DNA of 64,000 bases from Promethearchaeia archaeon (GCA_029856145.1 JAHQWK010000025.1:1-64000); one strand, 5' to 3'. Positions 763 through 33,210 are shown, counted from the stretch's first letter. Numbers and translations are program-made. Notes: generated by a model not told the origin, from the sequence alone.

Positions 763-900
763 GCAATAATCTCTGGTAATTTTGGGACAGCTCAAAGTAA
801 AATTAAAGCTTTAATGGATGTTGGTGTTAATATTGCTGAAACCCCTTGGGATGTTCCTAAGTTAATTAAAGTAATCCAAAAAGCCAATTATATTATTTAA
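763..900 (+). pseudogene. sucD: 3' remnant of succinyl-CoA synthetase alpha subunit (SucD)
   Basis: Manual translation AIISGNFGTAQSKIKALMDVGVNIAETPWDVPKLIKVIQKANYII* matches the SucD C-terminus (GHAGAIISGxxGTAxxKxxAL..GV.xAETP); no start codon or upstream part. Confidence 0.75.
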
Positions 901-1087
901 AAAAAGATCTAGAAGAATTATATAATCTATTGAATGAAAAACAGAATTAATTAAAAAATTCCAAAATTTGTTCAATCAAATAACAAAGAAATGATCATAA
1001 CTATAATAATTGTCTAGGAGTAAGATTCTTTCTCTTTCTATTGGTGTTTTATTTTCCAAATCATAATTTTGTTCAAATTATTCATTG

Positions 1088-1117
1088 AAAAGTTTTATAA
1101 CTGGGAAGGTTTTCCCA
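1088..1117 (+). promoter_or_regulatory. BRE/TATA (AAAAG-TTTTATAA) followed by the palindrome TGGGAA-N4-TTCCCA, upstream of aclB
   Basis: Sequence gaaaagttttataactgggaaggttttccca. Confidence 0.5.
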
Positions 1118-1216
1118 TATTACTAAGGTGCGAAAAATTTATTAGAAAAACGATTCTACCTAAATTATCAGTTTTAATGAAATTTTTGTAAAAAAAAATA
1201 AAAGAGTTAGAAAATT

Positions 1217-2512
1217 TTGGCTCAGAAAAATATTTATGAATATGACGCAAAAAAGCTTCTAGCAAGTGAATTGCCTAAATATTATCCAAATTTTAACTAT
1301 CATGATAAATTAGCCATCGCCGAAAGTGGTACTGATTTAGAGCAATTAATTAAGGAAAATCCCTGGATTGAAACAGAAAGAGTTGTTATCAAGCCCGATC
1401 AACTATTTGGAAAAAGAGGAAAAGCTAATTTACTTTTACTCGATGCTAATCTTGATAAAATGAAACAGTTTTGTATGACTAATTTAGATCGAGTTTTTGA
1501 AATTGGTAATATTAGAGGACAATTAAAACGCCTACTTATTGAACCTTTTATTCCTCATGAGAAAGAATATTATATTTCTATTACTTCTGACAGAGAAAAT
1601 GATATTATCCACTTTAGCTTCGAAGGAGGTATATTTATCGAGGAAAATTGGGACAAAGTACATCATATCCCGGTCCCTCTTGGAACTGATATTAATACGT
1701 TTGATTTAGCAAATAATTTACCGGGTTTAGGTGAACTAAAGGATGTTTTGATACCTTTTATTAAAAGCTTATTTCAAGTTTATGTTGATCAAGATTTTGC
1801 ATTTCTTGAAATCAATCCATTTGCTATCACAGAAGATAAGAAAATTGTTCCTTTAGATGTAAAAGCTCGGTTAGATGACACAGCGGCTTTTCTTCACCAA
1901 GATACGTGGGGAAATCCAGAAAATCCAATCGAATTTCCAGCAGCATTTGGACAAAAAATGTCTAGTGAAGAAGCTTATATAAGAGAATTGGATGAGAAAA
2001 CTGGCGCATCTCTAAAGTTGAAAGTTTTAAATAAAGATGGAAGAGTTTGGACAATGGTTGCTGGAGGAGGTGCATCTGTAATTTATACTGATACTATAGT
2101 AGATTTAGGTTATGGGAGCGAATTAGGGAATTATGGTGAATACTCCGGAAACCCATCAAAAGAACATACTGAAATTTATGCCCAAACTATTATTAATCTC
2201 ATTACTGAAAATCCAGATCCAGAAGGAAAACCAAAATATTTGATAATTGGAGGAGGTATTGCTAATTTTACTGATGTAAAAGCAACATTTACAGGAATTG
2301 TAAGCGCAATTAGAAATTCTGTTGATAAATTGAAGAAAGCAAATGTACAAATATATGTAAGGAGAGGGGGACCTAACGAAAAACAAGGTTTAGAACTTAT
2401 GAAACAAGTTGGAAAAGAGACAGGAGTTCCAATAGAAGTATATGATAGATATACTCATATGACTAGAGTTGTAGAATTAATAAAAAAAGCTGAAATCGTT
2501 GGAGGGAATTAA
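1217..2512 (+). CDS. aclB: ATP-citrate lyase, ATP-grasp/citrate-binding subunit
   Basis: KPDQLFGKRGK, LEINPF, WTMVAGGGASVIY, GEYSGNP, GGGIANFT and RRGGPN motifs. Confidence 0.95.
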   Translation: MAQKNIYEYDAKKLLASELPKYYPNFNYHDKLAIAESGTDLEQLIKENPWIETERVVIKPDQLFGKRGKANLLLLDANLDKMKQFCMTNLDRVFEIGNIRGQLKRLLIEPFIPHEKEYYISITSDRENDIIHFSFEGGIFIEENWDKVHHIPVPLGTDINTFDLANNLPGLGELKDVLIPFIKSLFQVYVDQDFAFLEINPFAITEDKKIVPLDVKARLDDTAAFLHQDTWGNPENPIEFPAAFGQKMSSEEAYIRELDEKTGASLKLKVLNKDGRVWTMVAGGGASVIYTDTIVDLGYGSELGNYGEYSGNPSKEHTEIYAQTIINLITENPDPEGKPKYLIIGGGIANFTDVKATFTGIVSAIRNSVDKLKKANVQIYVRRGGPNEKQGLELMKQVGKETGVPIEVYDRYTHMTRVVELIKKAEIVGGN

Positions 2513-2514
2513 AA

Positions 2515-4350: not shown

Positions 4351-4431
4351 AAAATTCAAAATTAAATAAAAAGTAATTAAAAATAAATAAAAAATCAATT
4401 AGAAATAATAACAAATTGGAGGCATATAAAA

Positions 4432-5622
4432 TTGAATGAAATGATTGATAAAGCAAAGGATCATTTTGCTAAACTCGTAGAAGAACAATTGGAAAGAGTA
4501 GAACGCATGAAAAAAGCGGGTGATTGGACCGATTACTCTGCACTAAAACCTATTATCATTGGATTTGTAGGTGGTGACGGTATTGGTCCTTATATTGCTA
4601 AACATGCCCAAGCAATTACGGAATTCTTATTAAAAGATGAACTTGAAAGTGGTAAAGTAGAATTTCGTGTAATTGAGGGATTAACAATAGAAAATAGAGC
4701 AAAAGTAATGAAAGCAATCCCCGATGACGTGTTAGAAGAGATTAAAAAGTGCCATGTATTATTAAAAGGTCCAACAACAACACCAAGAAAGGGAGATAAA
4801 TGGCCTAATATCGAAAGTGCAAACGTAACAATGCGTCGTGAATTGGATTTATTCGCAAATGTTCGACCTGTGAAAGTTCCCGAGAAAAATATTGATTGGA
4901 TGTTTTTCAGAGAGAACACAGAAGGGGCATATGTTTTAGGTTCGAGGGGAATAAATGTTTCAGATGATCTTGCCATTGATTTTAAAGTTATAACTACACA
5001 AGGAGCGGAGAGGATAATTAGATTAGCATTTGATTACGCAAAAAAGAACAATATTAATAGAGTCACTGTGGTCACTAAAGCTAATGTAGTAAAAGCTTCG
5101 GATGGTAAATTTTTAGCTATGGCAGAAGAAGTTGCAAAAGAATACCCTCAAGTTGAATGGGATGATTGGTATATTGATATAATGACAGCAAAATTAGTTG
5201 ATCCCGCTCGTCAAAGCCAGTTTAGAGTGTTTGTTGCTCCTAACTTATATGGAGATATTATTACAGATGAAGCTGCTCAAATCCAAGGGGGTGTTGGAAC
5301 TGCTGGAAGTGCAAATATTGGAAAACAATACTCTATGTTTGAAGCTATTCATGGATCAGCTCCGCGAATGGTTGAGGAAGGTCGTGCACAATATGCTGAT
5401 CCTTCAAGCATAATTAAAGCAGCAGCACTACTCATGAACCATATAGGTTTCACAGAAAAGGCTAATAAACTTGAAATGGCTCTTGATATTTGTGCTACTT
5501 ATGAAAAGAAGGTGGTTTTAACTGGTCGAGATACTGGGGCAACTGGAGAAGAATATGCAAAATATATAATGGAGACACTCCAAGATCCTAATCTTGAGCA
5601 AAAATGGAAAGGGTATCAATAA
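4432..5622 (+). CDS. icd: Isocitrate/isopropylmalate dehydrogenase family, probably isocitrate dehydrogenase
   Basis: GDGIGP, KGPTTTP, SANVTMRRELDLFANVRP, RENTEGAY, NLYGDIITDEAA, EAIHGSAP; directly follows aclBA. Confidence 0.8.
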   Translation: MNEMIDKAKDHFAKLVEEQLERVERMKKAGDWTDYSALKPIIIGFVGGDGIGPYIAKHAQAITEFLLKDELESGKVEFRVIEGLTIENRAKVMKAIPDDVLEEIKKCHVLLKGPTTTPRKGDKWPNIESANVTMRRELDLFANVRPVKVPEKNIDWMFFRENTEGAYVLGSRGINVSDDLAIDFKVITTQGAERIIRLAFDYAKKNNINRVTVVTKANVVKASDGKFLAMAEEVAKEYPQVEWDDWYIDIMTAKLVDPARQSQFRVFVAPNLYGDIITDEAAQIQGGVGTAGSANIGKQYSMFEAIHGSAPRMVEEGRAQYADPSSIIKAAALLMNHIGFTEKANKLEMALDICATYEKKVVLTGRDTGATGEEYAKYIMETLQDPNLEQKWKGYQ

Positions 5623-5799
5623 ATACCTCAGAAATTTTAAAGAATTTTTTTAATTATAATTTTTTTCATTTATTTCAATATATATTCAAGATTTGATTTC
5701 TTCATATTAAAAAAACAAATTTAAATAATAAAAAAGTATTTCATATCTAGACATGTAAATATTCGACATATATTGAAAAATCCTCAAACCTAGTGTATA

Positions 5800-6345
5800 A
5801 TGAGTACAGAAAAATTAGTTGAACTTATTGAACATTCAATGAAGAGTGGTTATATTAGTATGCTTATTTTATTAGCTCTTGAAAAAGAACCAGCTAATGG
5901 TTATAAACTAATGAAAAAGATTTCTGAGGAAACATTTGGAGAATGGCGACCAACTAATTCAACAATGTATCCCTATCTTTCCAATCTTACAAATAGGGGA
6001 TTAATTCAATATGAAAAGAGGAAAACAGGGCAAAGAGAAAGCAAAGAATATTACCTCACGATGAAAGGTAAAAAAGTTTTAAAGATGTTGGTAGAAAAAC
6101 AGCAAGAAATGAACTTATCTTTATTAAGTATGATTTCAACCGTCTTGGATGTCAACAGCCTCCCGAGTAATCTTCTGGATTTTTTTAGCCAATCTTATCA
6201 TGAACGTATTCTAATTGGTAAGACAAGCGAAGAAAAAATTAGCATTCTCAGCAGACGAATTGAAATTATAAATTTAATCTTAGAAATCATTGGAAAGAAT
6301 AAAATTGAAATGGAAAAAGAATTAGAAAAACTTAAAGGTAATTAA
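5800..6345 (+). CDS. PadR-family transcriptional regulator
   Basis: wHTH pattern: LLALEKEPANGYKL..TMYPYL..L...GLI....KEYYLTMKG. Confidence 0.85.
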   Translation: MSTEKLVELIEHSMKSGYISMLILLALEKEPANGYKLMKKISEETFGEWRPTNSTMYPYLSNLTNRGLIQYEKRKTGQRESKEYYLTMKGKKVLKMLVEKQQEMNLSLLSMISTVLDVNSLPSNLLDFFSQSYHERILIGKTSEEKISILSRRIEIINLILEIIGKNKIEMEKELEKLKGN

Positions 6346-6452
6346 AATAAAGTTTCTCCAAATTGCAATTAAGATTATTATAGAAATAAATTAGAGAGGT
6401 ACAACCTCGTTTATATTAATAAAATAAAACAAAAAAATGAGTAAATAAGAAT

Positions 6453-9400
6453 ATGGGTGTAATACTAAAACTTGCTTTTCGTAATATGAAAAGACGTAAA
6501 GTTCGCTATATTTTAACAATAATAACACTTGTCATTAGTGTCGCTTTGTTTGGCGGAGTTTTAATCGTATCTGATTCATTCAATGTAATGATGTTAAAAA
6601 CTATAGATGAGCAGTTAGGTACTGCAGATATTTTAATTAGATCTGCTAATAGTACTGACGGTTGGTTTGAACCTGATGAAATTAATAGTGAATTAGAAGA
6701 TGTAAGACACGTTGAATCAATAGCTTACCGGATTTCAGGTTTCAATGTTTATATTAGTGCAACTAATAGTGGAAACCAAGTAGAAAATAGCACAAGAACA
6801 GGGATATACGGTATTGATCATCAAGATGTGGATGAACGAGAATTAGGTGGGAAACCCTTTATATTAGATTCAGTGAGTAATGAGGATACAATCGAAAAAC
6901 TTCTTGAGTATACCCACGAGGATACTGGAGATAAAGTAATAGTTATTTCAGAATCACTAAAAATTCAATTAGGAAAAAATCTTAAAGCAAATGATAGTGT
7001 TTGGGTTCTTCCAAATGACGGAGAGTTTCTGGGTTATGACCCTCTAAATACAGGAACATGGCTTGAATATTCTGTTGTTGCTATAATACGGGATATCGGT
7101 GAAGGGAAAGATTTCGATCCAGAAAACCCTTCAGAGTCTGCAATGACTATGATTGGAGTTGGTGGAGGAGGACCAGGTATTTTTGTAAATATCAATAATG
7201 CTCATGAACTAGTGGATGGTACAGAAAATCATACTGGTGAATATAATCTAGGTGTTGTAGGAGTTGATAATATATACAGTGTATCTTCCGTAGTCGAGAA
7301 TATTGAAAATAATTTAGAAGATCTTAATGATGGAAGAGATTGGAAAGTTAATGACTTAAAATCAAGTAATTTAGAAATGATAAATACTACAATGAGTATA
7401 TTAGAGACTGTCTTTCTAATTTTTGGTTTAGTCGCATTAATCCTCTCAATTATCCTAATGATGAATATTTTTAATATTATTAAAAAAGAACAAGAATATG
7501 AGACAGGTATGTTCCAAGCAATAGGAGCATCTAAATCTGAAACTTTTAAACTGTTTTTAACCCAAGGTACAGTAATGGGAATAATTGGAACAACATTAGG
7601 AACAATATCTTCCTATTTCATATCGTATGTAATTTTTTCAGTTACATTACAAACAATCCAAAGTATTACAGCACAATTTGGAGGGCTTTCAATTTCAAAT
7701 TTTGAAATTGTTTTATATCCTGCAACTCTAATTACAACATTTATAGTTGGGTTAGTTTCTAGTATTTTTGCTTCACTTTACCCTAGTTGGAAAGCAAGTC
7801 GTAAACCTATCATTGAATGCTTAAATCCAATCGAAGAAAAGTCTAAAAGGGAGAAAAAACATTATTGGAAAAGAATAATACTCTTCATTTCAGGGAGTTT
7901 ACTTATCTCTTCTGGGGTATTGCTTATGATTTTTACACCTGAAGCTACAACTGCATTTATGCCATCCGCACAATCAATGCCAGGGATGGATCAAGGAATG
8001 GTGGTTACGATGTTTGCTCCTATTTTAGTCTTATTTGGGATTATTTGGTTAATTGTACTTAGCATAAAACCGCTTAATAAAGTTTTCGTGGCTTTGTTTT
8101 CTCCATATCTACGGAAAACAAGATTATTAACTGAAAAGAATATATTAAGACATCGAAAAAGAACAAGTCTTACATTCACTATGATTGCTTTAACAACAAG
8201 TTTTCTTATAGGGATGAGTGTAATGATGGATTCAATAAGAGCAGGTATAGGTACTACCATTGATGACTTTATGGGTGCTGATATACGACTATACACTTTC
8301 AATACTCCCAGATCTTTCGAAGAAGGCCTCCTTAATCAATCAGGAGTAGATGATGTAATGGGAGTAAGTCATCAAAATGCACAAATTCAAATAAATAATG
8401 ATTGGATTGGACATAGCTTACTTGATCGAGAATATAATACTACTATTATGGTAAATGTTTTGGACACAGAAAAAGCTAAAGAACATCTGACTAAAACTAC
8501 CATAATTTCCCCTACAACAATGACTCTTATTGAAATGATGGAAGAAATTAAAATGGGTAATAATATCATAATTGATGAAAATTTTGCTGATGATTATAAT
8601 TTGAATGTTGGTAGAAATTTATCTGTAAGATTTTCACTAGGAACAACTTATGCAAATCTAACTGCAATACTTGATACAGATGATTATAATGCACATGAAG
8701 ATACTTTTATAGTAAATATGACAATTACAGCAATTATTCGAAGCATTCAGGGGTTTTCATCACTAGATCTCTTGGGAGTTCAAGGTGAAGGAAAATCTTA
8801 TAATACGTTTATCTCTTGGGAAATCTACGAAGAAATTGCTAATAAAAATCTACCTGGTGGAGGTACTGATCTGGTTTTCAGACAATTAACTCAAACTGGA
8901 AACCCTATGTTTGATCTAGTTCAACCTAATTGGTTCGCCTTTTCTACTGTGGAATCAATTCTAAATGGTATTAGTGGAATCGAATATTATACCACAAGAA
9001 TGGACTATTATACGCCAGTATCTTATAACGGTTCAGTAATAGATTATGCAAGTTCGGTTGCGGGTATTCATACAAATTCTTCTGGAAACCTTAGATCTGA
9101 TTTATACTTTGGAAATAATAATCTTGTAAGCCAAAAGCTTGGATATGTTGGATCTACAATGGAAGAACTACTCAATACGACAGAAAATATATGTGTAGTG
9201 GATGAAATTTTCATAAAAAACAATCCTACTATAGGAATTGGTGATAATATAACTATTTTTCCACATCAATTCAATTTAGAAACTATTTCTGCAGGAGGTT
9301 TTCCATATATCACTACAGCTATCCCTTATATAAATAATTATACATCAGTATCAGGAACTACTACAGATTTAATTTTTTCTGATGACGTATACTTATCATA

Positions 9401-10646
9401 TGTAAGTAATAGAGAGTGGCTTGCTTTAAATATTACAGTGAATTTACTGCCTACTAACTTATATAAAGCTATAAATGTTACCATAGAGACTTCAGTAAAC
9501 ACCACTGTCGATTCTCTAGAATTGGAAGTTCTTAATATTTATACTAACACATTTGAAAACCTAGGACCTATCAATAATATTATAGAGAATAATAACACTT
9601 TTAATTTCAATTTAAACCATTATTATGTTGATCCAATTGGAGATCTCAAACTAAGAATTATTGGTCGTAACTCCACATATAATGGTAACTATAATTTAAC
9701 TATTGATAGCCTAAAGCTTGGAGTAGCTAAGTCAATTTATTCAACAATAACTCCAGATTTTTGGCCAAAATTTGAAATTATAGGAATTATTGAGGCACCT
9801 ACTTTGTATAATACCGAAAAATACAATTGGTATGCTGGTTTTGAATTGGGTTATGATATTAGTGGAAATTCAATATTTATAAATTACGAAAAAGCAAGAA
9901 ATGTTATATATTCTGACTATAGAGGATCTGATTATTCTAATGATATGGTAACTTCAGTGTTAGTTCACTGTGATCACCCAGAAAATATAACAACTTATAA
10001 AAATTTGTTGTTACAAAATCTACATTTCATAGCAGGGGGTTATTGGTCAATAATTGACCTTAAAAGTTTGACTCTTTCAATTAGGACCAATGTTTATGAC
10101 TGGTTTACGTGGGTGGAAGTCGGAGTGCACGATGAAGATGTTTTAGAAGAACAAATTAATTACATAGAAGATCGAGGTTATCTTATAATATTTGCTTTTA
10201 CAAAATCATTTATGAGTTCTACTTTTAGGACGATGATTAATTTAATCGTTTTCATTACGAATGGTCTACTTATCTTTGCTATAATAATTGCAATGATTGG
10301 GTTAACTCTTCATAGTCTTCTTACAACCATGGCACGTAGAAGGGAAATAGGTATGCTTAGATCAATAGGATTAAGTAAAAAAGGGGTAATTCGTTCAATA
10401 TCAGGAGAGACATTAATTTTAGCACTTTTGGGTGTATTTACGGGTATATTTGCAGGTATAATTCAAGGATCTTTGATGGTGGAAGCTATGCCCTCCGGTG
10501 GATTTCTCGCAGTTACTTGGACAATTCCTTGGTTAACTATTGGCATTTTGGTATTGACTGTTTTAATAACTGTAATTTTGAGTTCAAGATATCCTGCAAA
10601 ATGGGCAGCAAACTTGAATATCATAGACGCGGTGAGAACAAGATGA
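6453..10646 (+). CDS. Large FtsX/MacB-type ABC permease (two FtsX domains, large extracellular loops)
   Basis: KLAFRNMKRRKVRYILT N-terminus, ETGMFQAIGAS and RRREIGMLRSIG motifs, terminal YPAKWAANLNIIDAVR. Confidence 0.9.
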   Translation: MGVILKLAFRNMKRRKVRYILTIITLVISVALFGGVLIVSDSFNVMMLKTIDEQLGTADILIRSANSTDGWFEPDEINSELEDVRHVESIAYRISGFNVYISATNSGNQVENSTRTGIYGIDHQDVDERELGGKPFILDSVSNEDTIEKLLEYTHEDTGDKVIVISESLKIQLGKNLKANDSVWVLPNDGEFLGYDPLNTGTWLEYSVVAIIRDIGEGKDFDPENPSESAMTMIGVGGGGPGIFVNINNAHELVDGTENHTGEYNLGVVGVDNIYSVSSVVENIENNLEDLNDGRDWKVNDLKSSNLEMINTTMSILETVFLIFGLVALILSIILMMNIFNIIKKEQEYETGMFQAIGASKSETFKLFLTQGTVMGIIGTTLGTISSYFISYVIFSVTLQTIQSITAQFGGLSISNFEIVLYPATLITTFIVGLVSSIFASLYPSWKASRKPIIECLNPIEEKSKREKKHYWKRIILFISGSLLISSGVLLMIFTPEATTAFMPSAQSMPGMDQGMVVTMFAPILVLFGIIWLIVLSIKPLNKVFVALFSPYLRKTRLLTEKNILRHRKRTSLTFTMIALTTSFLIGMSVMMDSIRAGIGTTIDDFMGADIRLYTFNTPRSFEEGLLNQSGVDDVMGVSHQNAQIQINNDWIGHSLLDREYNTTIMVNVLDTEKAKEHLTKTTIISPTTMTLIEMMEEIKMGNNIIIDENFADDYNLNVGRNLSVRFSLGTTYANLTAILDTDDYNAHEDTFIVNMTITAIIRSIQGFSSLDLLGVQGEGKSYNTFISWEIYEEIANKNLPGGGTDLVFRQLTQTGNPMFDLVQPNWFAFSTVESILNGISGIEYYTTRMDYYTPVSYNGSVIDYASSVAGIHTNSSGNLRSDLYFGNNNLVSQKLGYVGSTMEELLNTTENICVVDEIFIKNNPTIGIGDNITIFPHQFNLETISAGGFPYITTAIPYINNYTSVSGTTTDLIFSDDVYLSYVSNREWLALNITVNLLPTNLYKAINVTIETSVNTTVDSLELEVLNIYTNTFENLGPINNIIENNNTFNFNLNHYYVDPIGDLKLRIIGRNSTYNGNYNLTIDSLKLGVAKSIYSTITPDFWPKFEIIGIIEAPTLYNTEKYNWYAGFELGYDISGNSIFINYEKARNVIYSDYRGSDYSNDMVTSVLVHCDHPENITTYKNLLLQNLHFIAGGYWSIIDLKSLTLSIRTNVYDWFTWVEVGVHDEDVLEEQINYIEDRGYLIIFAFTKSFMSSTFRTMINLIVFITNGLLIFAIIIAMIGLTLHSLLTTMARRREIGMLRSIGLSKKGVIRSISGETLILALLGVFTGIFAGIIQGSLMVEAMPSGGFLAVTWTIPWLTIGILVLTVLITVILSSRYPAKWAANLNIIDAVRTR

Positions 10647-10713
10647 TTGATTGAAACAAATTAAAAAAATGAGGTTTAGAAAATGTCAATTAAAAAGAAA
10701 AAAGTGAGGAAAA

Positions 10714-11496
10714 GTGAGGATGAATAAAGAAAGAAGAGCAACGGCAAAAATGATTAAAATTGATCCAAGCATAGTTCTTACTGTACAAGATCTCACTAAA
10801 ACGTACACTATAGGTAATTCCACAATCACAGCTTTGAACAAAGTTAATCTAACAATTAGAAAAGGTGAATTTATTGCTATCGTAGGTCCATCTGGTTCAG
10901 GGAAAACAACTTTGATAAATTGCCTAGGTGCTCTTGATTTCCCAGATTCAGGTAAGATTATTTATAATGTTGATGCTAAAGGAATGGGACTTGATATAAT
11001 GCTAATGACCAATAAACAACACAAAAAAATGCGATTGAGAAAGATTGGCTTAATTTTCCAATTTTACAATCTTTTTCCTATCCTTACAGCTTACGAGAAT
11101 GTAGAGCTTCCGATGGTAATTGATAAGAAAGATCCAAAATTACGAAAAGAAAAGGTTAAAAATCTGTTAAAAAGGATTGGATTAGAGGAACGAATGGAGC
11201 ATCTACCTACTCAGCTGTCTGGTGGGGAACAACAAAGAGTCACGATAGCTAGGGCTTTGGTTAACGATCCTCTTATTATTCTTGCTGATGAACCTACAGG
11301 TGAGCTCGATACGGAGACAACTACAAATATTATGAAAATTTTCCTTGATTTAAAGAACGCTGGAGAATCAATTTTAATGGTTACCCATAATAGAAGAATA
11401 GCAGAAGTAGCAGATAGGATTATAACTCTTACTGATGGAGAATTTATTAGTGAAAAAAATGGAGGAAAACCAATTAAAGAAATCTATAAATTCTGA
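10714..11496 (+). CDS. ABC transporter ATP-binding protein (LolD/MacB-like)
   Basis: GPSGSGKT, LSGGEQQR, LADEPTGELD; the start region carries a 10-bp tandem duplication. Confidence 0.9.
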   Translation: MRMNKERRATAKMIKIDPSIVLTVQDLTKTYTIGNSTITALNKVNLTIRKGEFIAIVGPSGSGKTTLINCLGALDFPDSGKIIYNVDAKGMGLDIMLMTNKQHKKMRLRKIGLIFQFYNLFPILTAYENVELPMVIDKKDPKLRKEKVKNLLKRIGLEERMEHLPTQLSGGEQQRVTIARALVNDPLIILADEPTGELDTETTTNIMKIFLDLKNAGESILMVTHNRRIAEVADRIITLTDGEFISEKNGGKPIKEIYKF

Positions 11497-11512
11497 ATTG
11501 GAGGTATAAAAA

Positions 11513-12292
11513 ATGAAGAAAGCTAAAAAGAAGAGGGAAATTCAGTTTATAAAATCAGTACTTCATGATGTTAAAGATTACGAATTAATAAGCCCTGCTA
11601 CAATGATCCAAACTTTTAATTTAACTAAAGTTTATAATATTACGGAAGGAATTGAAATTAGAGCATTGAATGGTGTTAGCATAGATATTAAGAAAGGTGA
11701 ATTTGTTTCAGTTATGGGACCGTCAGGTTCTGGAAAAACTACCCTTTTAAATATGATTGGTGCTCTTGATAATCCTACAAGTGGGGTTGTATACATCAAT
11801 AGAACAAATATAGCTCATATGAATGATATACAACGCACAAATTTAAGACTTAAAGAAATTGGCTTCATTTTTCAGTTTTATAATCTAGTACCAGTTCTTT
11901 CAGCTTATGAAAATGTGGAACTTCCGATGCTTTTTGCAGGTAGAACCAAACGAGAAATTGAAAGAAATGTTAATAAATTTCTTGATCTTGTAGGCCTAAG
12001 TGAGAAGAAAGATCATCTCCCTTCAGAGCTTTCAGGTGGAGAGCAACAAAGAGTTGCAATTGCACGAGCATTGTGTAATGAACCTTCCATCTTAATAGCT
12101 GATGAGCCTACAGGTGAACTTGATAGTAAAATGGGTATGGAAATAATTAAATTACTACGAGAGCTTAATTTAGAGCTTAATCAAACTATCTTAATGGTCA
12201 CTCACGATCCTATGGTTGGTGCTCTTGCTGAAAGAATGTTAAAAATGCGAGATGGAAAAATTATCGAAACTGTAATTACTAATAATAAATAA
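11513..12292 (+). CDS. ABC transporter ATP-binding protein (LolD/MacB-like)
   Basis: GPSGSGKT, LSGGEQQR, IADEPTGELD. Confidence 0.92.
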   Translation: MKKAKKKREIQFIKSVLHDVKDYELISPATMIQTFNLTKVYNITEGIEIRALNGVSIDIKKGEFVSVMGPSGSGKTTLLNMIGALDNPTSGVVYINRTNIAHMNDIQRTNLRLKEIGFIFQFYNLVPVLSAYENVELPMLFAGRTKREIERNVNKFLDLVGLSEKKDHLPSELSGGEQQRVAIARALCNEPSILIADEPTGELDSKMGMEIIKLLRELNLELNQTILMVTHDPMVGALAERMLKMRDGKIIETVITNNK

Positions 12293-12341
12293 TTTTTTAA
12301 TTTAGTTTTATCCAAACTTAAAAATGACTGGTCGAGATACT

Positions 12342-13475
12342 TTAAAAGGATTTTTTTACTTTCTTATTTCTCATCATTCTATATAAAAGAAATATATATA
12401 CAATAGTCAAGCTACAACAAATCAATAAAGGATGAATAGGGATTGCATTAGTAATTATTCCTGTAGTTAAAATTCGTACTCCGCCTTCAAGAGTAGCTAA
12501 ATAGACTCTATCATCTTTCACAGCAACTCTCAGAGTTCTCCATTGGTGATGGTAAAATCCAATCTTGATAGGATTTTTGGGATCAAGACAATTAATGACT
12601 TTAAGACCTTCACCGTCATCTGCTATAAATGCTATTTCATTATCAATAAGTTTAACATCATTTATTGATCCTCCATCAAAATATGTCCCTAAAACGTTTA
12701 TGTTCAAGGGATCAGAGAAATTCAATATTTTCAATCCATTAGTATAATCATTAAAATAAACTAAATCTTGATAATGAGCTTTGGGTGCACCACCATCATA
12801 TCCTTCACCAGTATCAACAGTGCTTAGATGTGTGATATTTTTTGGATCACTAATATCTAATAATTTTAAATCAATAGCAGTAGGAGGGCCAATAATATTG
12901 GGAATTCTTGTACCAACAAAAGCAAAATCATCTAAAACATAAACAGGACCCACATGACCAACGCCATCAACCCAATTATCTATCATAATTGGATTATTTG
13001 GATCAGTTACATTGACAATTTGTAGACCATGATTCTCAGCACCAACAAATAATAATTCTCCTTTCAGTTGAATGTATGTTGAAGTTGTATAATTTAGGTA
13101 GACTGAAAGCAATTCTAATTGGTTTGGATTACTAAAATTAAATATGTTTACGCCTGTTGAAGCAGTAATAAATACTAATTTTCTTTCAAGATCAAGTTCA
13201 ATATCATGCACAATGGGTAGAGAATAATAATCTAATTCAAAACAATTAGTAGGATCTGTTATATTGTAAATTGTTAAGCCTCGATTAATTTCCGCAAGGA
13301 AAGCCAAATCATTCTCGATAAATCGCATATTAATAATGCCAGTCCCAGGTGCTATCGAGCCAATTTCGGTAAAAGTGGAAGTATATTCTATGCCCCTTAT
13401 TGAGATAGGATTAATAAATAATGAACAAAAAATAATAAAGACAAACAACTTGATTATTTTCTTTTGCATAAACAT
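12342..13475 (-). CDS. LVIVD-repeat beta-propeller protein, secreted or membrane-anchored
   Basis: Signal peptide, repeated GL.I.N/D.TDP.NP motifs, C-terminal TM helix plus basic tail. Confidence 0.8.
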   Translation of the reverse strand: MFMQKKIIKLFVFIIFCSLFINPISIRGIEYTSTFTEIGSIAPGTGIINMRFIENDLAFLAEINRGLTIYNITDPTNCFELDYYSLPIVHDIELDLERKLVFITASTGVNIFNFSNPNQLELLSVYLNYTTSTYIQLKGELLFVGAENHGLQIVNVTDPNNPIMIDNWVDGVGHVGPVYVLDDFAFVGTRIPNIIGPPTAIDLKLLDISDPKNITHLSTVDTGEGYDGGAPKAHYQDLVYFNDYTNGLKILNFSDPLNINVLGTYFDGGSINDVKLIDNEIAFIADDGEGLKVINCLDPKNPIKIGFYHHQWRTLRVAVKDDRVYLATLEGGVRILTTGIITNAIPIHPLLICCSLTIVYIFLLYRMMRNKKVKKSF

Positions 13476-13613
13476 AACTCTCTCTTAATTAAAATGTATT
13501 ATATAAAATATACATAAAAAAGATCTTATTAAAAAACACTTGATTCAGAATATCTTAAGAAGTTAAGTTGAGAGAGTTAAGCTTAATGATAGGAAAACTT
13601 TATAATAAGAAAA

Positions 13614-13724
13614 ATGAAAATACTTACAATAATAGGAAGCCCACGGAAACGTAATACTTATAAAGTTACCCAACAAATTGAAGAAAGAATGAAAGAGTTA
13701 GGAAACATAGAGTTTTGTCAATAG
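13614..13724 (+). pseudogene. N-terminal stub of a flavodoxin-like NADPH-dependent FMN reductase
   Basis: Manual translation MKILTIIGSPRKRNTYKVTQQIEERMKELGNIEFCQ*; GSPRKxNT FMN-phosphate loop; TATA-like TTTATAA upstream. Confidence 0.7.
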
Positions 13725-13821
13725 ATCAATAAGAAATCATGAATTAAAAATTTATTAATCAAATAGAATTTGCAGCTATTAAACTTGAACAAGAGAAAAA
13801 AAAAATGGAATTTACTAGTTT

Positions 13822-14595
13822 TTAACCTTTTGAATTTTTTTTGAGAAGTTCTGCTACCTTGGCTATATCTTCATCCATGTTAGGACCTTTCTTGACTATC
13901 ACGGTAACATTCATATTAGAAACTTGTGGTTTCCCTTTTTTACCCGTGAAAGGAACGTCTACCTTGTACTTGATCACACCTTTTTTTATCTTCTTCTCTA
14001 CTATGTCATAATTGTCCTTAAATGGATATATATGACCATAATTCAAGATACTGGAAGCCTCCATGTCAGTCGCTATAGATTTTGCTATGGAATCTGATAC
14101 AGACTTGTGGACGGCATATGATCCGAGCCGGATGAATTCCAGCCCCATTCCACTTAGTCTCGCTTGCTTGATTTCCTTCTTTCCAGAAGCAATAATTCTG
14201 TAATTCGATACATAAAGCATCCCAGTGATTTCGGAATTGTCATCTTGGAGCCATCCCTCGGCAACTACTATGAATTCCTCGCCAGGAAGCTTGCAAAAGT
14301 TCTCAATGAAATGTTTTTCGAAATCTACCAGTTTAGCGCCATATCTAGCAGATGCCATGAACATAAAGCCTTTATAGATCTTTTCATTGAATTGTTCCAA
14401 ATCTGCTTGGATGATAGCCTTAAAGATTTCACCCATAGCATCGTAATCGGATGGTTCTAGCTTCTTGAATCCCCCTAGTAGCTTCTTTACAACATTTCCG
14501 TGCTTTTTATTAGCAATAAGATCTAAAATTTCACCTTTAAGTGCTGTAAAATCAGTTGGTGCCATTATATTCGCCTTACTTAAATTAGTTTTCAT
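13822..14595 (-). CDS. Hypothetical protein (likely start MAPTDF at 14565)
   Basis: 257-aa ORF, visibly more GC-rich than its neighbours; no recognised family. Confidence 0.7.
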   Translation of the reverse strand: MKTNLSKANIMAPTDFTALKGEILDLIANKKHGNVVKKLLGGFKKLEPSDYDAMGEIFKAIIQADLEQFNEKIYKGFMFMASARYGAKLVDFEKHFIENFCKLPGEEFIVVAEGWLQDDNSEITGMLYVSNYRIIASGKKEIKQARLSGMGLEFIRLGSYAVHKSVSDSIAKSIATDMEASSILNYGHIYPFKDNYDIVEKKIKKGVIKYKVDVPFTGKKGKPQVSNMNVTVIVKKGPNMDEDIAKVAELLKKNSKG

Positions 14596-14753
14596 AAGAA
14601 AGTGAAAAATCCTTGAAAGAATCTTCTATCGTGAATTCATATCCACGATAAGAGTATGATCCATCTCTTCGCTTTTTTCACTCTTATTTTTTTTAGTTTT
14701 TAATTACTAATACCATGATAACTTTTATGTTTAAATGTTTGCTTTAATCATAT

Positions 14754-14939
14754 CATATTGGATTTGTAGAGAAAGCTAAAAAACTAGAGATGGCTTTTTT
14801 GGAGATATGTGCAATTTATGAGAGAAAATTAAAAGTAACAGGAAGAGATAATAGTACTACTATAGATAGTTTTGCAAACTACATTATGTAAACAATTCAA
14901 AATCCTAATCTTGAGCAAAAATGGAAAGTGTATCAGTAA
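14754..14939 (+). pseudogene. icd: Displaced, diverged 3' end of icd
   Basis: HIGFVEKAKKLEMAFLEICAIYERKLKVTGRDNSTTIDSFANYIM*TIQNPNLEQKWKVYQ* against the last 60 aa of 4432-5622 gives 40/60 identical by hand; internal TAA at 14889-14891. Confidence 0.92.
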
Positions 14940-14997
14940 ATACCTCAGTAAATTTAAATAATTTTTTTAATTCATAATTTTTTTTATTTAATTCAAT
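14898..14997 (+). repeat. Direct repeat of 5581-5680 (icd tail plus T-rich terminator)
   Basis: 14898-14948 vs 5581-5631 is 48/51 nt identical, and similarity continues through the noncoding T-rich tract. Confidence 0.9.
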
Positions 14998-15058
14998 TCT
15001 GTACTAAAACAGTTCCCTAGATAGATTTTAAGTAGCCAGATTTACCGCTAACTTAATT

Positions 15059-15802: not shown

Positions 15803-15868
15803 GATAAAATAGAAAATTTAAAAAGATAAAATGAAATTTAAATACGTTTCAATTAATGACGGAAGAGA

Positions 15869-15943
15869 TTATAATTCTAAGAAATTTTTCAAGATTTGCA
15901 TTCCATGGAGCTTCATTTTGATGGATTCGGGATGGAACTGAAT
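15869..15943 (-). pseudogene. 3' remnant of a class I glutamine amidotransferase (TrpG/PabA-like), copy 1
   Basis: Reverse strand reads IQFHPESIKMKLHGMQILKNFLEL*, the canonical QFHPES...G..ILKNFL terminus. Confidence 0.8.
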
Positions 15944-15961
15944 ACTCCTATTATAAAGTTA

Positions 15962-16623: not shown

Positions 16624-16644
16624 ACATATATTTATAACTATCTT

Positions 16645-16703
16645 TGATTTTTAGGATATTCAATTCTCGGCTTCATTTTGATGGAATCTGGATGGAGTTA
16701 AAT
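16645..16703 (-). pseudogene. Second, more decayed copy of the TrpG/PabA-like 3' remnant
   Basis: 16670-16703 vs 15910-15943 is 29/34 nt identical; reads I*LHPDSIKMKP. Confidence 0.7.
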
Positions 16704-23466: not shown

Positions 23467-24738
23467 ATGACTATTTTAGAGGATGCTTTAAAAAAAAAAG
23501 TCACAGATGATTTTAGACAGATTGCCAAGGACGAAAAAGTAAATATAAATACAATTTTAAAAGCAGTTTCAAAAGGTCAAGCTGTAATCATAAAAAGAAT
23601 AAATAACAAACCAGTGGGTATTGGTTTTCCTTTTAGGACAAAGATTAATGTTAATATAGGTACATCCACATCATTGGTTAATGTCGATACAGAATTAGAA
23701 AAAGTTAAAGTTGCTGAGAAATTTGGAACAGATACATTATCAGACTTATCGATGGGAGGTAAAATTGATTTAATTAGGAAAAAGATTTTAAATATCTCAA
23801 CTGTTCCAATAACTACTGTACCGATATATCAAGTTCTTACAGAAGCAAACTCAATTGAAGGTATAACTGACGATTTAATCTTTAAGGTTATTGAAAATCA
23901 TTTAAAGGATGGGATAAGTTCTTTAGTTATCCATTCTGGCTTTAGTCTTGAAGATTTAAATCGAATGAAAGGAAAGAGGTTAATGGGAATGGTCTCTAAA
24001 GGTGGCTCATATACAGCAGCTTATATGGTCAATAATTCAGTTGAAAACCCATTTCTAAAAAATTTTGACAAGCTCCTCGAAATTCTAAATGAATATGATG
24101 CGATATTAAATTTAGGAAATGCTATGAGAAGTGGATGTATACATGATAAAATAGATGAATTTCAATTTTCAGAAATAAAACTCAATTCAAAACTTGCGAA
24201 AAAAGCAAATAAAAAGGGAGTACAAGTAATTATTGAAAGTTTAGGAGGTCATATAATGGCTAAGGATTTAATAAAATATTTAAAACTATATAAAAAAATT
24301 ACAAATAATAGACCTTTGTTTGTATCAGGACCAATTCCAACAGATTTTGCTCCTGGTTACGATCATATTGCAGCTGCTATTGGAGGAGCCTTTGCCTCAG
24401 GTTTTGGCGCAGATTATTTATGTGCCATTACCCCCGCGGAACATCTTTGTTTACCTACCGTCGAAGATATTAAAAAGGGATTAATATCTTGTCGTATTGC
24501 TGCTCATGTTGGGGATTCTTTTAAATTTGGATTAAATTATTTATTTAATGATGACCTTCATCTTTCTAAATACCGATTTCAAAAAAATTGGAAAAAACAA
24601 TTTGAACATAGCGTTGATCCTACGGAACCTCAAAAAAAGCATCCCATTAGTGAAGATGTCTGTTCGATGTGTGGAAAATATTGTGCGTTATCAATTTCAC
24701 AAAAGCTTTTTAATAATAAGCCATCAACAAAATTTTAA
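23467..24738 (+). CDS. thiC: ThiC/BzaF-family radical SAM protein
   Basis: TKINVNIGTS, DLSMGG, TVPIYQ, YDHI..AIG, TPAEHL, C-terminal CSMCGKYC. Confidence 0.8.
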   Translation: MTILEDALKKKVTDDFRQIAKDEKVNINTILKAVSKGQAVIIKRINNKPVGIGFPFRTKINVNIGTSTSLVNVDTELEKVKVAEKFGTDTLSDLSMGGKIDLIRKKILNISTVPITTVPIYQVLTEANSIEGITDDLIFKVIENHLKDGISSLVIHSGFSLEDLNRMKGKRLMGMVSKGGSYTAAYMVNNSVENPFLKNFDKLLEILNEYDAILNLGNAMRSGCIHDKIDEFQFSEIKLNSKLAKKANKKGVQVIIESLGGHIMAKDLIKYLKLYKKITNNRPLFVSGPIPTDFAPGYDHIAAAIGGAFASGFGADYLCAITPAEHLCLPTVEDIKKGLISCRIAAHVGDSFKFGLNYLFNDDLHLSKYRFQKNWKKQFEHSVDPTEPQKKHPISEDVCSMCGKYCALSISQKLFNNKPSTKF

Positions 24739-28060: not shown

Positions 28061-28143
28061 AATCGAATAAGCACATATCTTGATTTAAATCTAATCTTTC
28101 TTTTTTATACTCAATTGGAATTAAAAATTTTAAAATACTAAAA

Positions 28144-29187: not shown

Positions 29188-30018
29188 GTGAACCAATTGA
29201 GCTTCATAATAACTAAAGGAATCAAAAATAAAGTTAAAAGAGGAAAATTGTCTTTAAAGAATATGGGCATCACCAATATGTTTGAGATTCAGGGGCTTGG
29301 TAATCTTACAAATCTAAGGAAATTAGATCTAAAAAAAAATGCTATAACAAAAATTGAAAACTTAGATTGGTTGATAAGTCTAGAGAAGTTAAAACTTAAA
29401 AAGAATAATATTCTAGAGATTGAAGGACTTGATAAATTACAGAATTTAATTAATTTAAATTTAAGTTGTAATCAAATACGAGAAATTAAAGGTCTTGAAA
29501 ACTTGACTAATTTAAAGCGTCTAAATTTAAGAGAAAACCAAATTACAGACATAAAGGGGCTTGAGAGTCTTAAGAACCTAAAATATTTAAGTCTAGGTTT
29601 AAATCAAATAACAAAAGTAAGCGGTCTTGATACACTTGAAAATTTAGAAGGCTTAGATCTTTCAAATAATCAAATCTCTAAAATTGAAGGGCTTGAAAAC
29701 TTAACTAATTTAAAAACTTTATATCTTACAAAAAATAATTTCACTGTTATAGAAGGTTTACAAAACTTACGAAATCTAAGACAAATTACTATTGGATTTA
29801 AAAGAGTAATCGGGGGGGTAGAGCTTAATGGAAAAAAATTCCCTACAAATGAAAGAAAAAAAATGGGTGTTAAATTTGAACCAGAATATGGTATGCGAAT
29901 AAATGCAAGAAAAATAGTTCTATACTGTCAATTTCCAAGAGAGACGGAAATTTTTGATATCCCTACTTCTGGTATATCTGATTCACAAAAAGATTGGAAG
30001 AAAAGAATAAAAAAGTGA
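29188..30018 (+). CDS. Leucine-rich repeat protein (SDS22-like)
   Basis: About 8 repeats of LxxLxLxxNxIxxIxGLxxL. Confidence 0.9.
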   Translation: MNQLSFIITKGIKNKVKRGKLSLKNMGITNMFEIQGLGNLTNLRKLDLKKNAITKIENLDWLISLEKLKLKKNNILEIEGLDKLQNLINLNLSCNQIREIKGLENLTNLKRLNLRENQITDIKGLESLKNLKYLSLGLNQITKVSGLDTLENLEGLDLSNNQISKIEGLENLTNLKTLYLTKNNFTVIEGLQNLRNLRQITIGFKRVIGGVELNGKKFPTNERKKMGVKFEPEYGMRINARKIVLYCQFPRETEIFDIPTSGISDSQKDWKKRIKK

Positions 30019-30126
30019 ATAGCATCTTTGAATCCACTATTCGAGAATAATCTTGGTGTATGAAAAAAATTTTAAATAAAAAGCAAGATAATCTTATTTT
30101 TCTATTAAATGTGTGATTGATTTTCT

Positions 30127-30261
30127 ATGAAAACTCTGATTGTTGCACTTGGTGGGAATGCATTAATTAAATTTGGAGAAGAAGGTACCACAGAAGAGCA
30201 ATTTCGAAATTTGAGAGTTCCTATAAGTCAAATTGCGAAATTAGCAAGAGACTATAAATAA
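30127..30261 (+). pseudogene. arcC: Displaced 5' end of a carbamate kinase gene
   Basis: MKTLIVALGGNALIKFGEEGTTEEQFRNLRVPISQIAKLARDYK* is 30/44 aa identical to the N-terminus of 33211-34128. Confidence 0.92.
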
Positions 30262-30553
30262 AGGAGAAATCTCTGTCTCATACAAATTGCGTTTTGCAGA
30301 TATTGATGAATTTGTCGAGGAATACGTGGAAAATATTGAAGTAGCAACGCTTTTAGGTAATGGGAATGCAAAGATTAGCAAATTAGATGAAAAAGTAGAG
30401 AAGTTAGAACAGCAAAACGATGCACTAAACAAGGTTCTTGAAGAATTTATTGAAGATAAAAAGAAAATGGAAAAGCAATTGAGCAAAGAAATTAAGAAAA
30501 ACACAGAATTGATTACTAAACTTGCTGAAAAAATCAAAAATCAAGATAAATAA
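30260..30553 (+). pseudogene. 5'-truncated ORF with coiled-coil tail; possible C-terminal remnant of a tyrosine recombinase
   Basis: The frame reads KGEISVSYKLRFADIDEFVEEY.. starting at the arcC-stub junction, followed by a coiled coil; the recombinase identity is tentative. Confidence 0.35.
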
Positions 30554-30662
30554 AAATTTTTTAAACTCCTTTTTTTTCAAATCTAATCAAAGAGATTTAT
30601 AAATCTTGGTATTAAATTAAAACATGAACTATTTTAACAATAAAAATGTGATTGATTAAAAA

Positions 30663-32183
30663 ATGGTTAAAAAAAAAATAATTTTATTTTTATTAGTACC
30701 CCTCATAATTGTAAGTTCTATTGTTGCTGTTTTTTTATTTTTCCCAAAAGGAACTTCAGATAATCCAATTGAGTACAATTTTAGAACAAAATGGGACACG
30801 TCACGAATAAGTTTGGGTTCGAGTACTCCCAATCAAATCAAATTACCATTGGAATCAGGAGGAACCTATGATTTTACGGTCAATTGGGGTGATGAAACTA
30901 ACGACACGATAACGAGCTGGAACCAAGCAGAAAAAACGCATACATATTCTTCAGAAGGTGTTTACACGATTAGAATAAACGGAACAATTACTGGTTGGAG
31001 TTTTAATAATGGTGGAGATAGATTAAAACTACTTGAAATTCAAGAATGGCATGTTTTACGACTTGGAAATGCAGGATCCTATTTTTATGGATGTTCTAAT
31101 CTGAAGATTACAGCCAGTGATGTTTTAAATTTAACAGGAACATCTAATTTTTATAGTGCTTTTAGAGGTTGCAGTTCTATTAATAAAGTAAAAAGAATGA
31201 ATGAATGGGACACATCAAAGGTTATAAATATGAGCTACATGTTCTATAGTGCTAATCACTTCATCCAAGATATTGGCAACTGGAATGTTTCAAGCGTTAC
31301 AGACATGAGCTCTATGTTCCGAAATATTTTTTACTTCAACCAAGACATTAGTTCCTGGAATGTTTCAAGGGTTACAAATATGCAATATATGTTCTATGAG
31401 GTTTTTTCCTTTAACCAAGACATTGGCAACTGGAATGTTTCTAGGGTTACAAATATGCAGTTCATGTTCAGGGATGCTACTTCCTTCAACCAAGACATTG
31501 GTTCCTGGAATGTTTCTAGGGTTACAAATATGCAGTACATGTTCGCTAGTGCTACTTCCTTCAACCAAGACATTGGTTCCTGGAATGTTTCAAGCGTTAC
31601 AAATATGCAGTCAATGTTCGCTAGTGCTACTTCCTTCAACCAAGACATTGGTTCCTGGAATGTTTCAAGCGTTACAAATATGCAGTACATGTTCGCTAGT
31701 GCTACTTCCTTCAACCAAGACATTGGTTCCTGGAATGTTTCTAGGGTTACAAATATGCAGTACATGTTCGCTGCTACTTCCTTCAACCAAGACATTGGTT
31801 CCTGGAATGTTTCTAGGGTTACAAATATGCAGTTAATGTTCGCTAGTGCTATTTTCTTCAACCAAGACATTGGTTCCTGGAATGTTTCAAGCGTTACAAA
31901 TATGCAGTTAATGTTCGCTAGTGCTACTTCCTTCAACCAAGACATTGGTTCCTGGAATGTTTCAAGCGTTACAGAAATGGATTCAATGTTCCAAGGTGTA
32001 ACATTATCGACACTTAATTATGATAATTTATTGATTGGATGGTCGGCGTTAACCTTGCAAAATGGAGTCTCATTTAATGGAGGTAATTCTCAATATAGTA
32101 AGAGTCCAAGTCTCGCTGCTACAGCAAGAGCGAATATTATTAGTAGTTTTAATTGGTCGATTATAGATGGTGGACCGGTCTAG
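30663..32183 (+). CDS. Membrane-anchored surface protein with PKD-like domain and DUF285/BspA-type repeats
   Basis: N-terminal TM helix, [16 protein letters not shown], [16 protein letters not shown].xMF repeats, [10 protein letters not shown] and IIDGG ending. Confidence 0.92.
31260..31992 (+). repeat. Ten tandem coding repeats of 75 bp (one of 72 bp)
   Basis: Units start at 31260, 31335, 31410, 31485, 31560, 31635, 31710, 31782, 31857 and 31932 and are near-identical in DNA. Confidence 0.95.
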
Positions 32184-32321
32184 AAAAACTAAAACATTTT
32201 TCTTTTAATAATCCAACCACATTTTTCGAATATTTTTGATTAAATTAGTGTTATGATTAAAAAAAAAGCTTAATCCTCCCTACGTTTTCCATTGCAACCA
32301 GCTTTATCAATAGTGATTAAA

Positions 32322-33086
32322 TTACACAATTTTTATATATTTAATTAATCTTAAATTACATAAAATTAGGTTGGAATTATCATCTAAATATAATTTTTCT
32401 AGATCTCTAAATTGTGAAATTAACGATGGGAATTCTTTTAAGTTATTAAATCTTAAATCAAGTCCTGATAATGTTTTCTTTTTAAAAACTAATGAATACT
32501 GAGGTGATAACGGTTGATCAAAAAATCTACTTCCTTCCACGATTCTTGGTTCTCTATTAATAAGTTTTCCTATTCCTTTTAGAGCGTCAATTTCATTCAT
32601 ACTTAGAAATGAATCTAATAATTCTTCTTTTAAATATTCTTTTATATACCCTTCACTTATTAGATACTTAATAACAGATGGATGTCCACTTTCAAACCGT
32701 TTTATTATTTCCTCTTTTAGAGTAATTTCAGCATAGGAATCTCCTAATTCCACTAATTTTTTAAGTAATGGAAAAGCAATTGTTCTATGAAGCAATCGAG
32801 TATCGTAATCATTCTCTGCCCATGCTTGCAAGTTGGAGCAGTGAGCCCAGAATTCTTGGTCTGGAGTAATATTAAATGATGATAGTGAACTCTCTTTAAG
32901 TGAAATATCTAAGATTTCTTCTGCTTCATCTATCGAATTTAAACTCTTGATATAACCAAGGTTTTCTTTGGGGATATGTATTAATAAATATTTGCATTGT
33001 CGGAATAATTCATTATTAACATAAATATTTGTCTTTCCATCTTCCAACCTTAATTTGATATACTTATTAAGTATAAACTCTCGCAT
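32322..33086 (-). CDS. Lokiarchaeal 'FWxHCSNLQAW' domain plus LRR protein, apparently C-terminally truncated
   Basis: EFILNKYIKLRLEDGKTNIYV..FRQCKYLL, EFWAHCSNLQAWAENDYDTRLLH..IAFPLLKKL; the LRR array stops after about 2 units and runs into AT-rich sequence. Confidence 0.75.
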   Translation of the reverse strand: MREFILNKYIKLRLEDGKTNIYVNNELFRQCKYLLIHIPKENLGYIKSLNSIDEAEEILDISLKESSLSSFNITPDQEFWAHCSNLQAWAENDYDTRLLHRTIAFPLLKKLVELGDSYAEITLKEEIIKRFESGHPSVIKYLISEGYIKEYLKEELLDSFLSMNEIDALKGIGKLINREPRIVEGSRFFDQPLSPQYSLVFKKKTLSGLDLRFNNLKEFPSLISQFRDLEKLYLDDNSNLILCNLRLIKYIKIV

Positions 33087-33210
33087 AAATCAAGTAAAGA
33101 TTTTAAGATTTGAATCTAATCATGAAAATAATCGTTAATAAAATTTTTAAATGTTTACTGTCTAAAAGATTTATTAAATTATAAAATTTATATCTTGAGA
33201 CACAATCTTT

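Follow-up and report, generated by a model that had tools for sequence, protein, structure and literature searches.

Six remnants of protein-coding genes lie in the first 64,000 nucleotides of contig C25 of a Promethearchaeia archaeon genome (G000; the stretch C25:1–64000 is the window analysed here): the 3′ ends of sucD and icd, two class-I GATase 3′ ends, the 5′ end of arcC and the N-terminal part of an NADPH-dependent FMN reductase. The initial annotation had proposed them as scars of a system that acquires DNA by targeting genes. G000 is a 3.55-Mb assembly in 32 contigs with an estimated contamination of 5.4%. Relatives carry the labels G001, G002 and so on and belong to the same genus unless the family is stated; this genus is well sampled (icd orthologues are 74–95% identical), and the structures described are known from assembled contigs. 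Translation of the six intervals bore out every remnant in the frame proposed, and the fragments were then run by tblastn against the whole 3.55-Mb assembly. Three pairs, those of icd, arcC and the GATase gene, lie in direct orientation around a block of other genes.

At arcC, the fragment (30127–30258) matches the start of the intact gene (33211–34128) with 68% identity over 44 aa (tblastn, E=1e-15), begins at the ATG and is directly oriented 3.0 kb from the intact gene, which adjoins OTC; a separate leucine-rich repeat (LRR) gene (29188–30018) stands between OTC and the fragment. The first 43 arcC residues of G012, G017, G003, G018 and G001 are 84–91% identical to the fragment, whereas the working N terminus of G000 is just 58–70% identical to those of the same five relatives. 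In a multiple alignment, the conserved upstream motif of the relatives stands before the fragment, and the region upstream of the working gene is unrelated. Compared with G001 and G018, the working gene shows 48–75% nucleotide identity over its first ~225 nt and 88–91% beyond. The fragment therefore reads as the native end, and the 5′ end of the working gene as foreign; the best matches of the latter, at 75–77% identity among 120 other genomes of the family, are mostly in another genus.

The boundaries at arcC do not coincide. The fragment ends at nt 132 and gives way to non-homologous DNA, native nt 133–225 being missing; because identity switches only at ~nt 225, native nt 133–~225 were apparently replaced. 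The left junction (30258/30259) has no extended identity and no shared core. These comparisons indicate that a foreign piece, made up of the cargo, a promoter and arcC nt 1–~225, took the place of native nt 133–~225, with the right crossover within homology and the left joint apparently made without it, which is the apparent signature of one-sided homologous plus illegitimate recombination. A site-specific insertion would align the boundaries of fragment and foreign tract, and a single crossover with a circle would keep the foreign tract no longer than the fragment, so neither fits arcC unless a later deletion is invoked. Among relatives, OTC and arcC are adjacent in G018 and G002, which thus retain the empty site; the interval holds a VapBC cassette in G001 and G004 and other DNA in G012 (1.6 kb), G003 (2 kb) and G017 (4.4 kb). 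None of these inserts has left an arcC fragment. A separate scar was seen in G002 between DAO and OTC, where an OTC 5′ piece (aa 1–76) is directly followed by a DAO 3′ piece (aa 213–388) in a junction resembling a tandem duplication (L020, G002:C11, 12659–17820).

At icd, the fragment (14754–14936) matches the C terminus of the gene with 66% identity over 61 aa (tblastn against the whole genome, E=4e-22) and lies in direct orientation 9.1 kb from the intact copy. The duplication extends ~60 nt beyond the stop codon: 5575–5679 and 14892–14997 are 90% identical and share a perfect 28-nt core, AATCCTAATCTTGAGCAAAAATGGAAAG, with the preceding ~140 nt far more diverged and the whole duplicated stretch 75% identical. 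The displaced copy, copy B, has an extra codon and a stop unlike any of the 12 functional icd alleles aligned, and its nearest allele is that of G014 (82% in nucleotides), not one from the clade of G000 itself. G017 DNA is collinear with window positions 14754–16658 at 90% identity, beginning exactly at the start of copy B, and copy B abuts the upstream region of the gene o257 precisely where homology to the icd–o257 arrangement of G119 stops. G000 and G001 are ~96% identical through aclA and icd and diverge after ~5570. The FtsX gene of the cargo is 88–90% identical in nucleotides to those of G012 and G008 and 82% identical to that of G001; because core genes of G012 and G008 are only ~75% identical to those of G000, this cargo appears to have passed from species to species, the breakpoint falling within the final ~60 nt of icd.

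Content 3′ of icd changes in nearly every genome examined. In G017, o247, PIN and VapB follow icd at once, leaving an empty icd–o247 site; G003 has 2.7 kb of other DNA and then o247, G018 only an LVIVD gene, G004 a DUF6036 pair, and G119 o257 directly beside icd and convergent with it, while G001, G012 and G008 carry the PadR–FtsX–ABC block. The insertion point is not shared either: the icd fragment of G000 covers aa 337–396, and that of G010, which includes a stop codon and lies 1.8 kb 3′ of its icd (L023, G010:C168, 6523–6672), covers aa ~304–356. G004 additionally has, in the same hotspot, a C-terminal piece of o446 (aa 343–445) followed by an inverted o247, a rearrangement scar (L024, G004:C7, 7703–10374). 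o257 (13822–14595, minus strand; 257 aa, no Pfam family) moves with its ~160-nt upstream region, and its context differs across many congeners, adjoining icd in G119 and lying elsewhere in G003. These data fit a layered history, in which an old displaced end was already part of the block when homologous recombination inside the conserved end of icd later moved or exchanged that block. A crossover at that point, later gene conversion or the core of an attachment (att) site could each be the reason for the high identity in the right part of the repeat.

Three further ideas were set aside. The ~100-nt icd repeat is not multicopy in the genome and hence not a dispersed element. o257 and o254, each ~255 aa, without a Pfam family and beside a repeat, were considered as a novel integrase, but the two are not related. 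o254 resembles LRR proteins, and o257 has only low-score Atlas leads, the best named being bPH-like. An all-against-all blastp of 48 cargo open reading frames (ORFs) gave no common family that might be a shared cargo gene or hidden recombinase.

The remaining fragments have other origins, such that the proposed gain of cargo through replacement of gene ends holds as a repeated process but does not account for three of the six cases. The sucD stub is 63–76% identical to the C terminus of the intact 289-aa sucD found in 16 of 45 other genus genomes. Intact sucD lies 3.5–21 kb upstream of icd on the same contig in G001, G002, G003 and G017, the four with icd coordinates; in many congeners sucCD is retained at a position upstream of the genes for ATP-citrate lyase, sucC–sucD being 1.5 kb upstream of aclB in G001. 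No sucC or sucD, and no second sucD copy, was found elsewhere in G000 by tblastn, and by these comparisons the stub appears to be all that is left of a sucCD operon since lost. That the gene did not survive at this junction speaks against a targeted system that spares genes. The flavodoxin-like stub matches Pfam FMN_red over 13614–13721 (E=4e-5) with 23.7 bits, just under the cut-off of 24 bits; it has no second copy in G000 and no intact homologue in the 45 other genus genomes, and is probably debris within the cargo. Of the two remnants annotated as trpG-like, the first weakly matches the end of class-I GATase in Pfam and the second is a degenerate copy of the first; trpG identity in particular is unsupported. 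They flank a VapBC cassette and have no intact gene. Collinearity with G017 stops inside the second of them, at ~16658, and a DUF6036 gene follows (16797–17432, Pfam). The GATase remnant beside o247 is retained, as a remnant, in G017, G001 and G018, none of which has an intact GATase there. Related VapB–PIN cassettes (~70% aa identity) are present at two different hotspots: G000 and G017 carry theirs next to o247, and G001 (L049, 1458–2115) and G004 (L024, 18271–18928) in the OTC–arcC interval.

The pattern recurs throughout the genome. We called ORFs of at least 90 aa in G000 and compared 1,946 intergenic stretches with its own proteins by blastx. This gave 154 fragments, 32 of them within 30 kb of their best-matching gene, against ~2.6 expected by chance. 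The geometry is non-random: of 19 N- or C-terminal pieces located 0.2–30 kb from the gene, 17 share its strand and lie where predicted, downstream for C-terminal and upstream for N-terminal pieces (binomial P=6e-9). The targets are housekeeping genes, among them HisRS-like, ThyA-like and Rad51-like genes and genes for an amidohydrolase, pyridine-nucleotide oxidoreductases, an acyl-CoA dehydrogenase and a pyrophosphatase. C-terminal displacement accounts for 13 cases genome-wide, most of which end at or near the stop codon, and the duplicated DNA is 70–90% identical. One of them is at an lpd-like pyridine-nucleotide oxidoreductase gene (G000:C7:91295–94998), where two stacked displaced ends of 78–79 codons, lacking stop codons, share both boundaries (within 8 nt) and the downstream flank; all three copies are mosaics of one another. 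No lpd-like fragments were found in other single-contig genomes, and breakpoints at two more loci (C3, a 515-aa gene, and C9, a 334-aa gene) were uninformative or mosaic. The same pipeline applied to the first 800 kb of G005, a single-contig congener, returned four C-terminal fragments of the same geometry and at a density similar to that in G000, about 5 scars per Mb. Two further pieces were seen in relatives: in G017 the intact Fer2/Pyr_redox gene has a displaced N-terminal piece 1.1 kb upstream (L046, G017:C37, 14767–14891), and G012 has a C-terminal stub of ThiC (L045, G012:C3, 11435–11545), thiC being intact in G000 (window 23467–24738) and G003.

Divergence between the copies supports the earlier suggestion that the fragments were once functional alleles rather than fresh duplicates. 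If one copy decays neutrally in place while the other stays under purifying selection, the ratio of non-synonymous to synonymous substitution rates (dN/dS) is expected to be ~0.55. Fragment and working end mostly give 0.07–0.25, with dS from 0.25 to saturated, and a few pairs give 0.43–0.54. Because most ratios are well below ~0.55, the two copies seem to have diverged for the most part while each belonged to a working gene in a lineage of its own. At icd and arcC the differences are, as first reported, mostly synonymous (proportions of synonymous and non-synonymous sites that differ, pS 0.67 and pN 0.18 for icd, 0.93 and 0.21 for arcC).

The cargo itself is ordinary. Domain matches for 39 cargo ORFs at other loci (25 of 65 Pfam families and 25 of 27 PHROG families listed) point to accessory genes: Ras/Arf/Roc GTPases, PAS, MFS, GT2, WD40, radical SAM and DUF285. 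Neither an integrase nor a transposase is among these listed matches or in the cargo of the window, and G000 as a whole has no match to PF00589 or PF00239. A XerA-like gene, in open frames of ~307–329 aa, is present in all 30 other genus genomes searched, with the XerA-like match the only one in 18 of the 30; G123 has five matches and G007 four. The gene is missing from G000 even when sought by tblastn with the G001 protein, probably owing to an assembly gap.

Homology-anchored recombination with DNA of congeneric species, independent of a recombinase, is in our view the probable source of the fragments, which would be gene ends displaced or orphaned in the process. The initial annotation had offered this mechanism as its alternative, and it fits the data. 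In a first step, for which arcC provides the example, incoming DNA with accessory genes beside a homologue of a resident gene would cross over inside that gene, and its other side would be joined illegitimately. The outcome would be a working chimeric gene with a foreign end (at arcC, a foreign promoter too), the native end being left as a stub beyond the cargo. A second step, suggested by icd and the lpd-like gene, would be homologous recombination between copies of the end, within or between genomes, by which blocks could be added, swapped, stacked or deleted and the repeats made partly uniform. A junction without a replacement end would truncate a dispensable gene, as may have happened to sucD and the GATase gene. 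Identity switches inside the anchor gene at both main loci, at ~nt 225 of arcC and, relative to G001, at ~5570 in icd. The apparent targeting of housekeeping ends would then arise because conserved genes offer a homology anchor and only events that preserve the gene survive. Coordinates of the features in the window are collected in Table 1.

Table 1. Features of the window at the sucD, icd, GATase and arcC loci
Feature	Position	Strand	Basis or remark
sucD 3′ remnant, 46 codons and stop	757–900	+	Intact sucCD operon of relatives missing here
icd, intact (Iso_dh)	4432–5622	+	~96% nt identical to G001 up to ~5570; last ~12 codons of different type
icd-end copy A, left direct repeat	5440–5680	+	High-identity part 5575–5679
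Cargo block: PadR, 1397-aa FtsX-type permease, two ABC ATPases, LVIVD-like protein (−), FMN_red stub, o257 (−) and its upstream region	5681–14753		Pfam; absent in G017
FMN_red stub, inside cargo; N-terminal part of NADPH-dependent FMN reductase (flavodoxin-like)	13614–13724	+	Pfam FMN_red positions 1–33
icd-end copy B, displaced pseudogene end and ~60 nt of downstream repeat	14754–14998	+	In-frame TAA, one extra codon
o247, conserved gene flanking the icd hotspot	15059–15802	−	Weak eRF1_3 match
GATase class-I 3′ remnant, copy a	15869–15943	−	Pfam positions 166–187 of 190 (last 22 matched), E=8e-4
VapB–PIN toxin–antitoxin cassette	15962–16623	−	Pfam; between the two GATase remnants
GATase 3′ end, degenerate copy b	16632–16703	−	71% identical to copy a over 75 nt
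Native arcC promoter region and native codons 1–44, displaced 5′ end	30060–30258	+	84–91% aa identity to five relatives; upstream motif common to all relatives
Cargo: 88-aa ORF, DUF285 protein (506 aa), LRR-like o254 (−), foreign arcC upstream region	30259–33210		Pfam
Foreign 5′ segment of working arcC (~nt 1–225)	33211–33435	+	48–75% nt identity to G001/G018, 88–91% after
Native remainder of arcC (AA_kinase)	33436–34128	+	Identity switch

Several observations weigh against homology-anchored recombination. We know of no route of DNA uptake in these archaea, and the donor of the arcC cargo was not found in the 120 other family genomes. The boundaries of the stacked lpd-like ends, within 8 nt of each other, are not what independent illegitimate joins would predict and need either the second step or a site-specific process; the 28-nt perfect core of the icd copies, within a ~105-nt stretch of 90% identity, would suit an att site as well. 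The lack of a tyrosine recombinase in G000 is itself weak evidence, because the XerA-like gene found in all 30 other genus genomes searched is missing from this assembly too.

The icd core and the lpd-like boundaries would also suit a process in which a site-specific integrase, its gene lying on a virus, a plasmid or an unassembled region, acts in trans on cassettes that lack a recombinase; these would target the ends of protein-coding genes and carry a replacement end, in the manner of e14 and phage 21 at icd or of integrase-less satellite elements. The geometry is that of prophage e14, which lies between icd and an icdC fragment (PMC13626634, citing Hill et al.), and some congeners have additional tyrosine recombinases, with five matches in G123 and four in G007. 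Against such an integrase, and against the gene-targeted system with a tyrosine recombinase in trans originally envisaged, arcC shows a fragment of nt 1–132 facing a foreign tract of nt 1–~225, with no core at the junction. Insertions in the same hotspots of relatives lie at other positions and are mostly fragment-free, the G010 icd fragment (aa 304–356) being a case in point; the ~17 target genes are unrelated, with no common motif seen, although no search for one was made; no integrase is among the cargo matches listed; and most congeners have only the XerA-like copy, with no PF00589 or PF00239 match in G000. We regard a trans-acting integrase of this kind as unlikely. A broader version, in which unrecognised trans-acting machinery (of a virus, plasmid, unassembled region or unannotated protein family) places integrase-less cassettes into the ends of conserved genes of Asgard archaea and supplies the replacement ends, seems to us more doubtful still; were it true, the homology-anchored scars would be its products and not by-products of general recombination.

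Two other origins fare worse. A metagenome bin of 32 contigs with some estimated contamination might join co-occurring strains or species, and congeners do co-occur in such samples. Yet the stop and extra codon of icd copy B are absent from the 12 functional alleles, the arcC fragment is joined to non-homologous DNA and the working arcC is mosaic inside a single ORF, three independent assemblies contain the GATase remnant beside o247, and the single-contig G005 has scars of the same kind and density, which makes chimeric assembly very improbable. Duplication in situ, or two tandem paralogues of which one decayed, could account for the few pairs with dN/dS of 0.43–0.54, near the neutral expectation, and the DAO/OTC junction of G002 looks like a product of tandem duplication. 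However, no relative examined has two full-length paralogues at icd or arcC, most pairs combine a low dN/dS with high dS, and the orthologous arcC end is the fragment and not the working end. Moreover, the 17 of 19 remnants that are the end nearest the cargo, in the predicted orientation, are not expected of random decay. Duplication is thus largely refuted already, and we give it the least credence of all the explanations considered.

Asgard genomes are large and hold many accessory families, among which the small GTPases and the LRR and WD40 proteins figure in discussions of eukaryote origins, and to our knowledge little is known of how such genes enter and spread. If the fragments arose by homology-anchored recombination, the main route of gene gain here would seem to be recombination with congeners that has conserved genes as its anchors and does without the enzymes of classical mobile elements. 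The displaced end would be a dated footprint of each event and may allow the donor lineage, the breakpoints and the order of events to be deduced. For annotation, this carries two warnings: a housekeeping gene in these genomes may be a chimera whose end and promoter are foreign, and former gene ends may sit in 'intergenic' DNA.

We found no description of the displaced-end pattern in Asgard archaea in the literature, but its elements have parallels elsewhere. Homology-facilitated illegitimate recombination (HFIR) is known from bacteria capable of natural transformation and from conjugation in E. coli (PMC3240628): one end recombines in homology, the other joins illegitimately and foreign genes are added, which the switch at ~nt 225 and the non-homologous joint at nt 132 of arcC fit. 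Diverged relatives that carry cargo beside the same gene, as donors in HFIR would, exist for icd (G001, G012, G008 and G119), in keeping with the low dN/dS, but not among the genomes compared for the arcC cargo. HFIR experiments come only from bacteria, whereas here such a process is proposed from scars in an archaeon.

Displacement of C-terminal ends is known from rhs genes (PMC2935791), and a sequential displacement model with a proposed HFIR-like origin exists for effector–immunity arrays of type VI secretion systems (T6SS) (PMC5361080). In rhs, contact-dependent inhibition (CDI) and T6SS arrays, a constant gene body gains a new 3′ end together with cargo, and older ends are pushed downstream as orphans that can stack and are reshuffled by homologous recombination. 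Here too, icd and the 13 C-terminal cases have orphan 3′ ends that lie directly oriented and downstream of the intact gene. The genes differ, being housekeeping enzymes (icd, arcC, lpd-like, HisRS-like and ThyA-like, among others) rather than polymorphic toxins with immunity genes; 5′ ends with their promoters are displaced too; and the new end is isofunctional, not a new toxin.

Phage 21 integrates at E. coli icd, as e14 does. For e14, the arrangement (PMC13626634) involves the same gene and the same geometry as here, with icd running into the insert and a C-terminal icd pseudogene at its far end. As a prophage, e14 has an integrase of its own and a fixed, defined att site, whereas the block at the archaeal icd has no phage or integrase genes and is mostly an ABC-transporter operon. 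A final parallel lies in gene-turnover hotspots between conserved core genes, whose maintenance Oliveira et al. (2017, Nat Commun) are reported to attribute to homologous recombination in flanking sequence. At the icd–o247 and OTC–arcC intervals, content likewise differs in nearly every congener examined, and species resemble one another more in the cargo than in the flanks. Replacement from flank to flank does not produce duplicated ends, however, and the displaced ends here would record rarer, additive events. What sets the present loci apart from all of these systems is the combination of an archaeal host, housekeeping genes as anchors, displaced 5′ ends with promoters, isofunctional replacement ends and a cargo of ordinary accessory genes.

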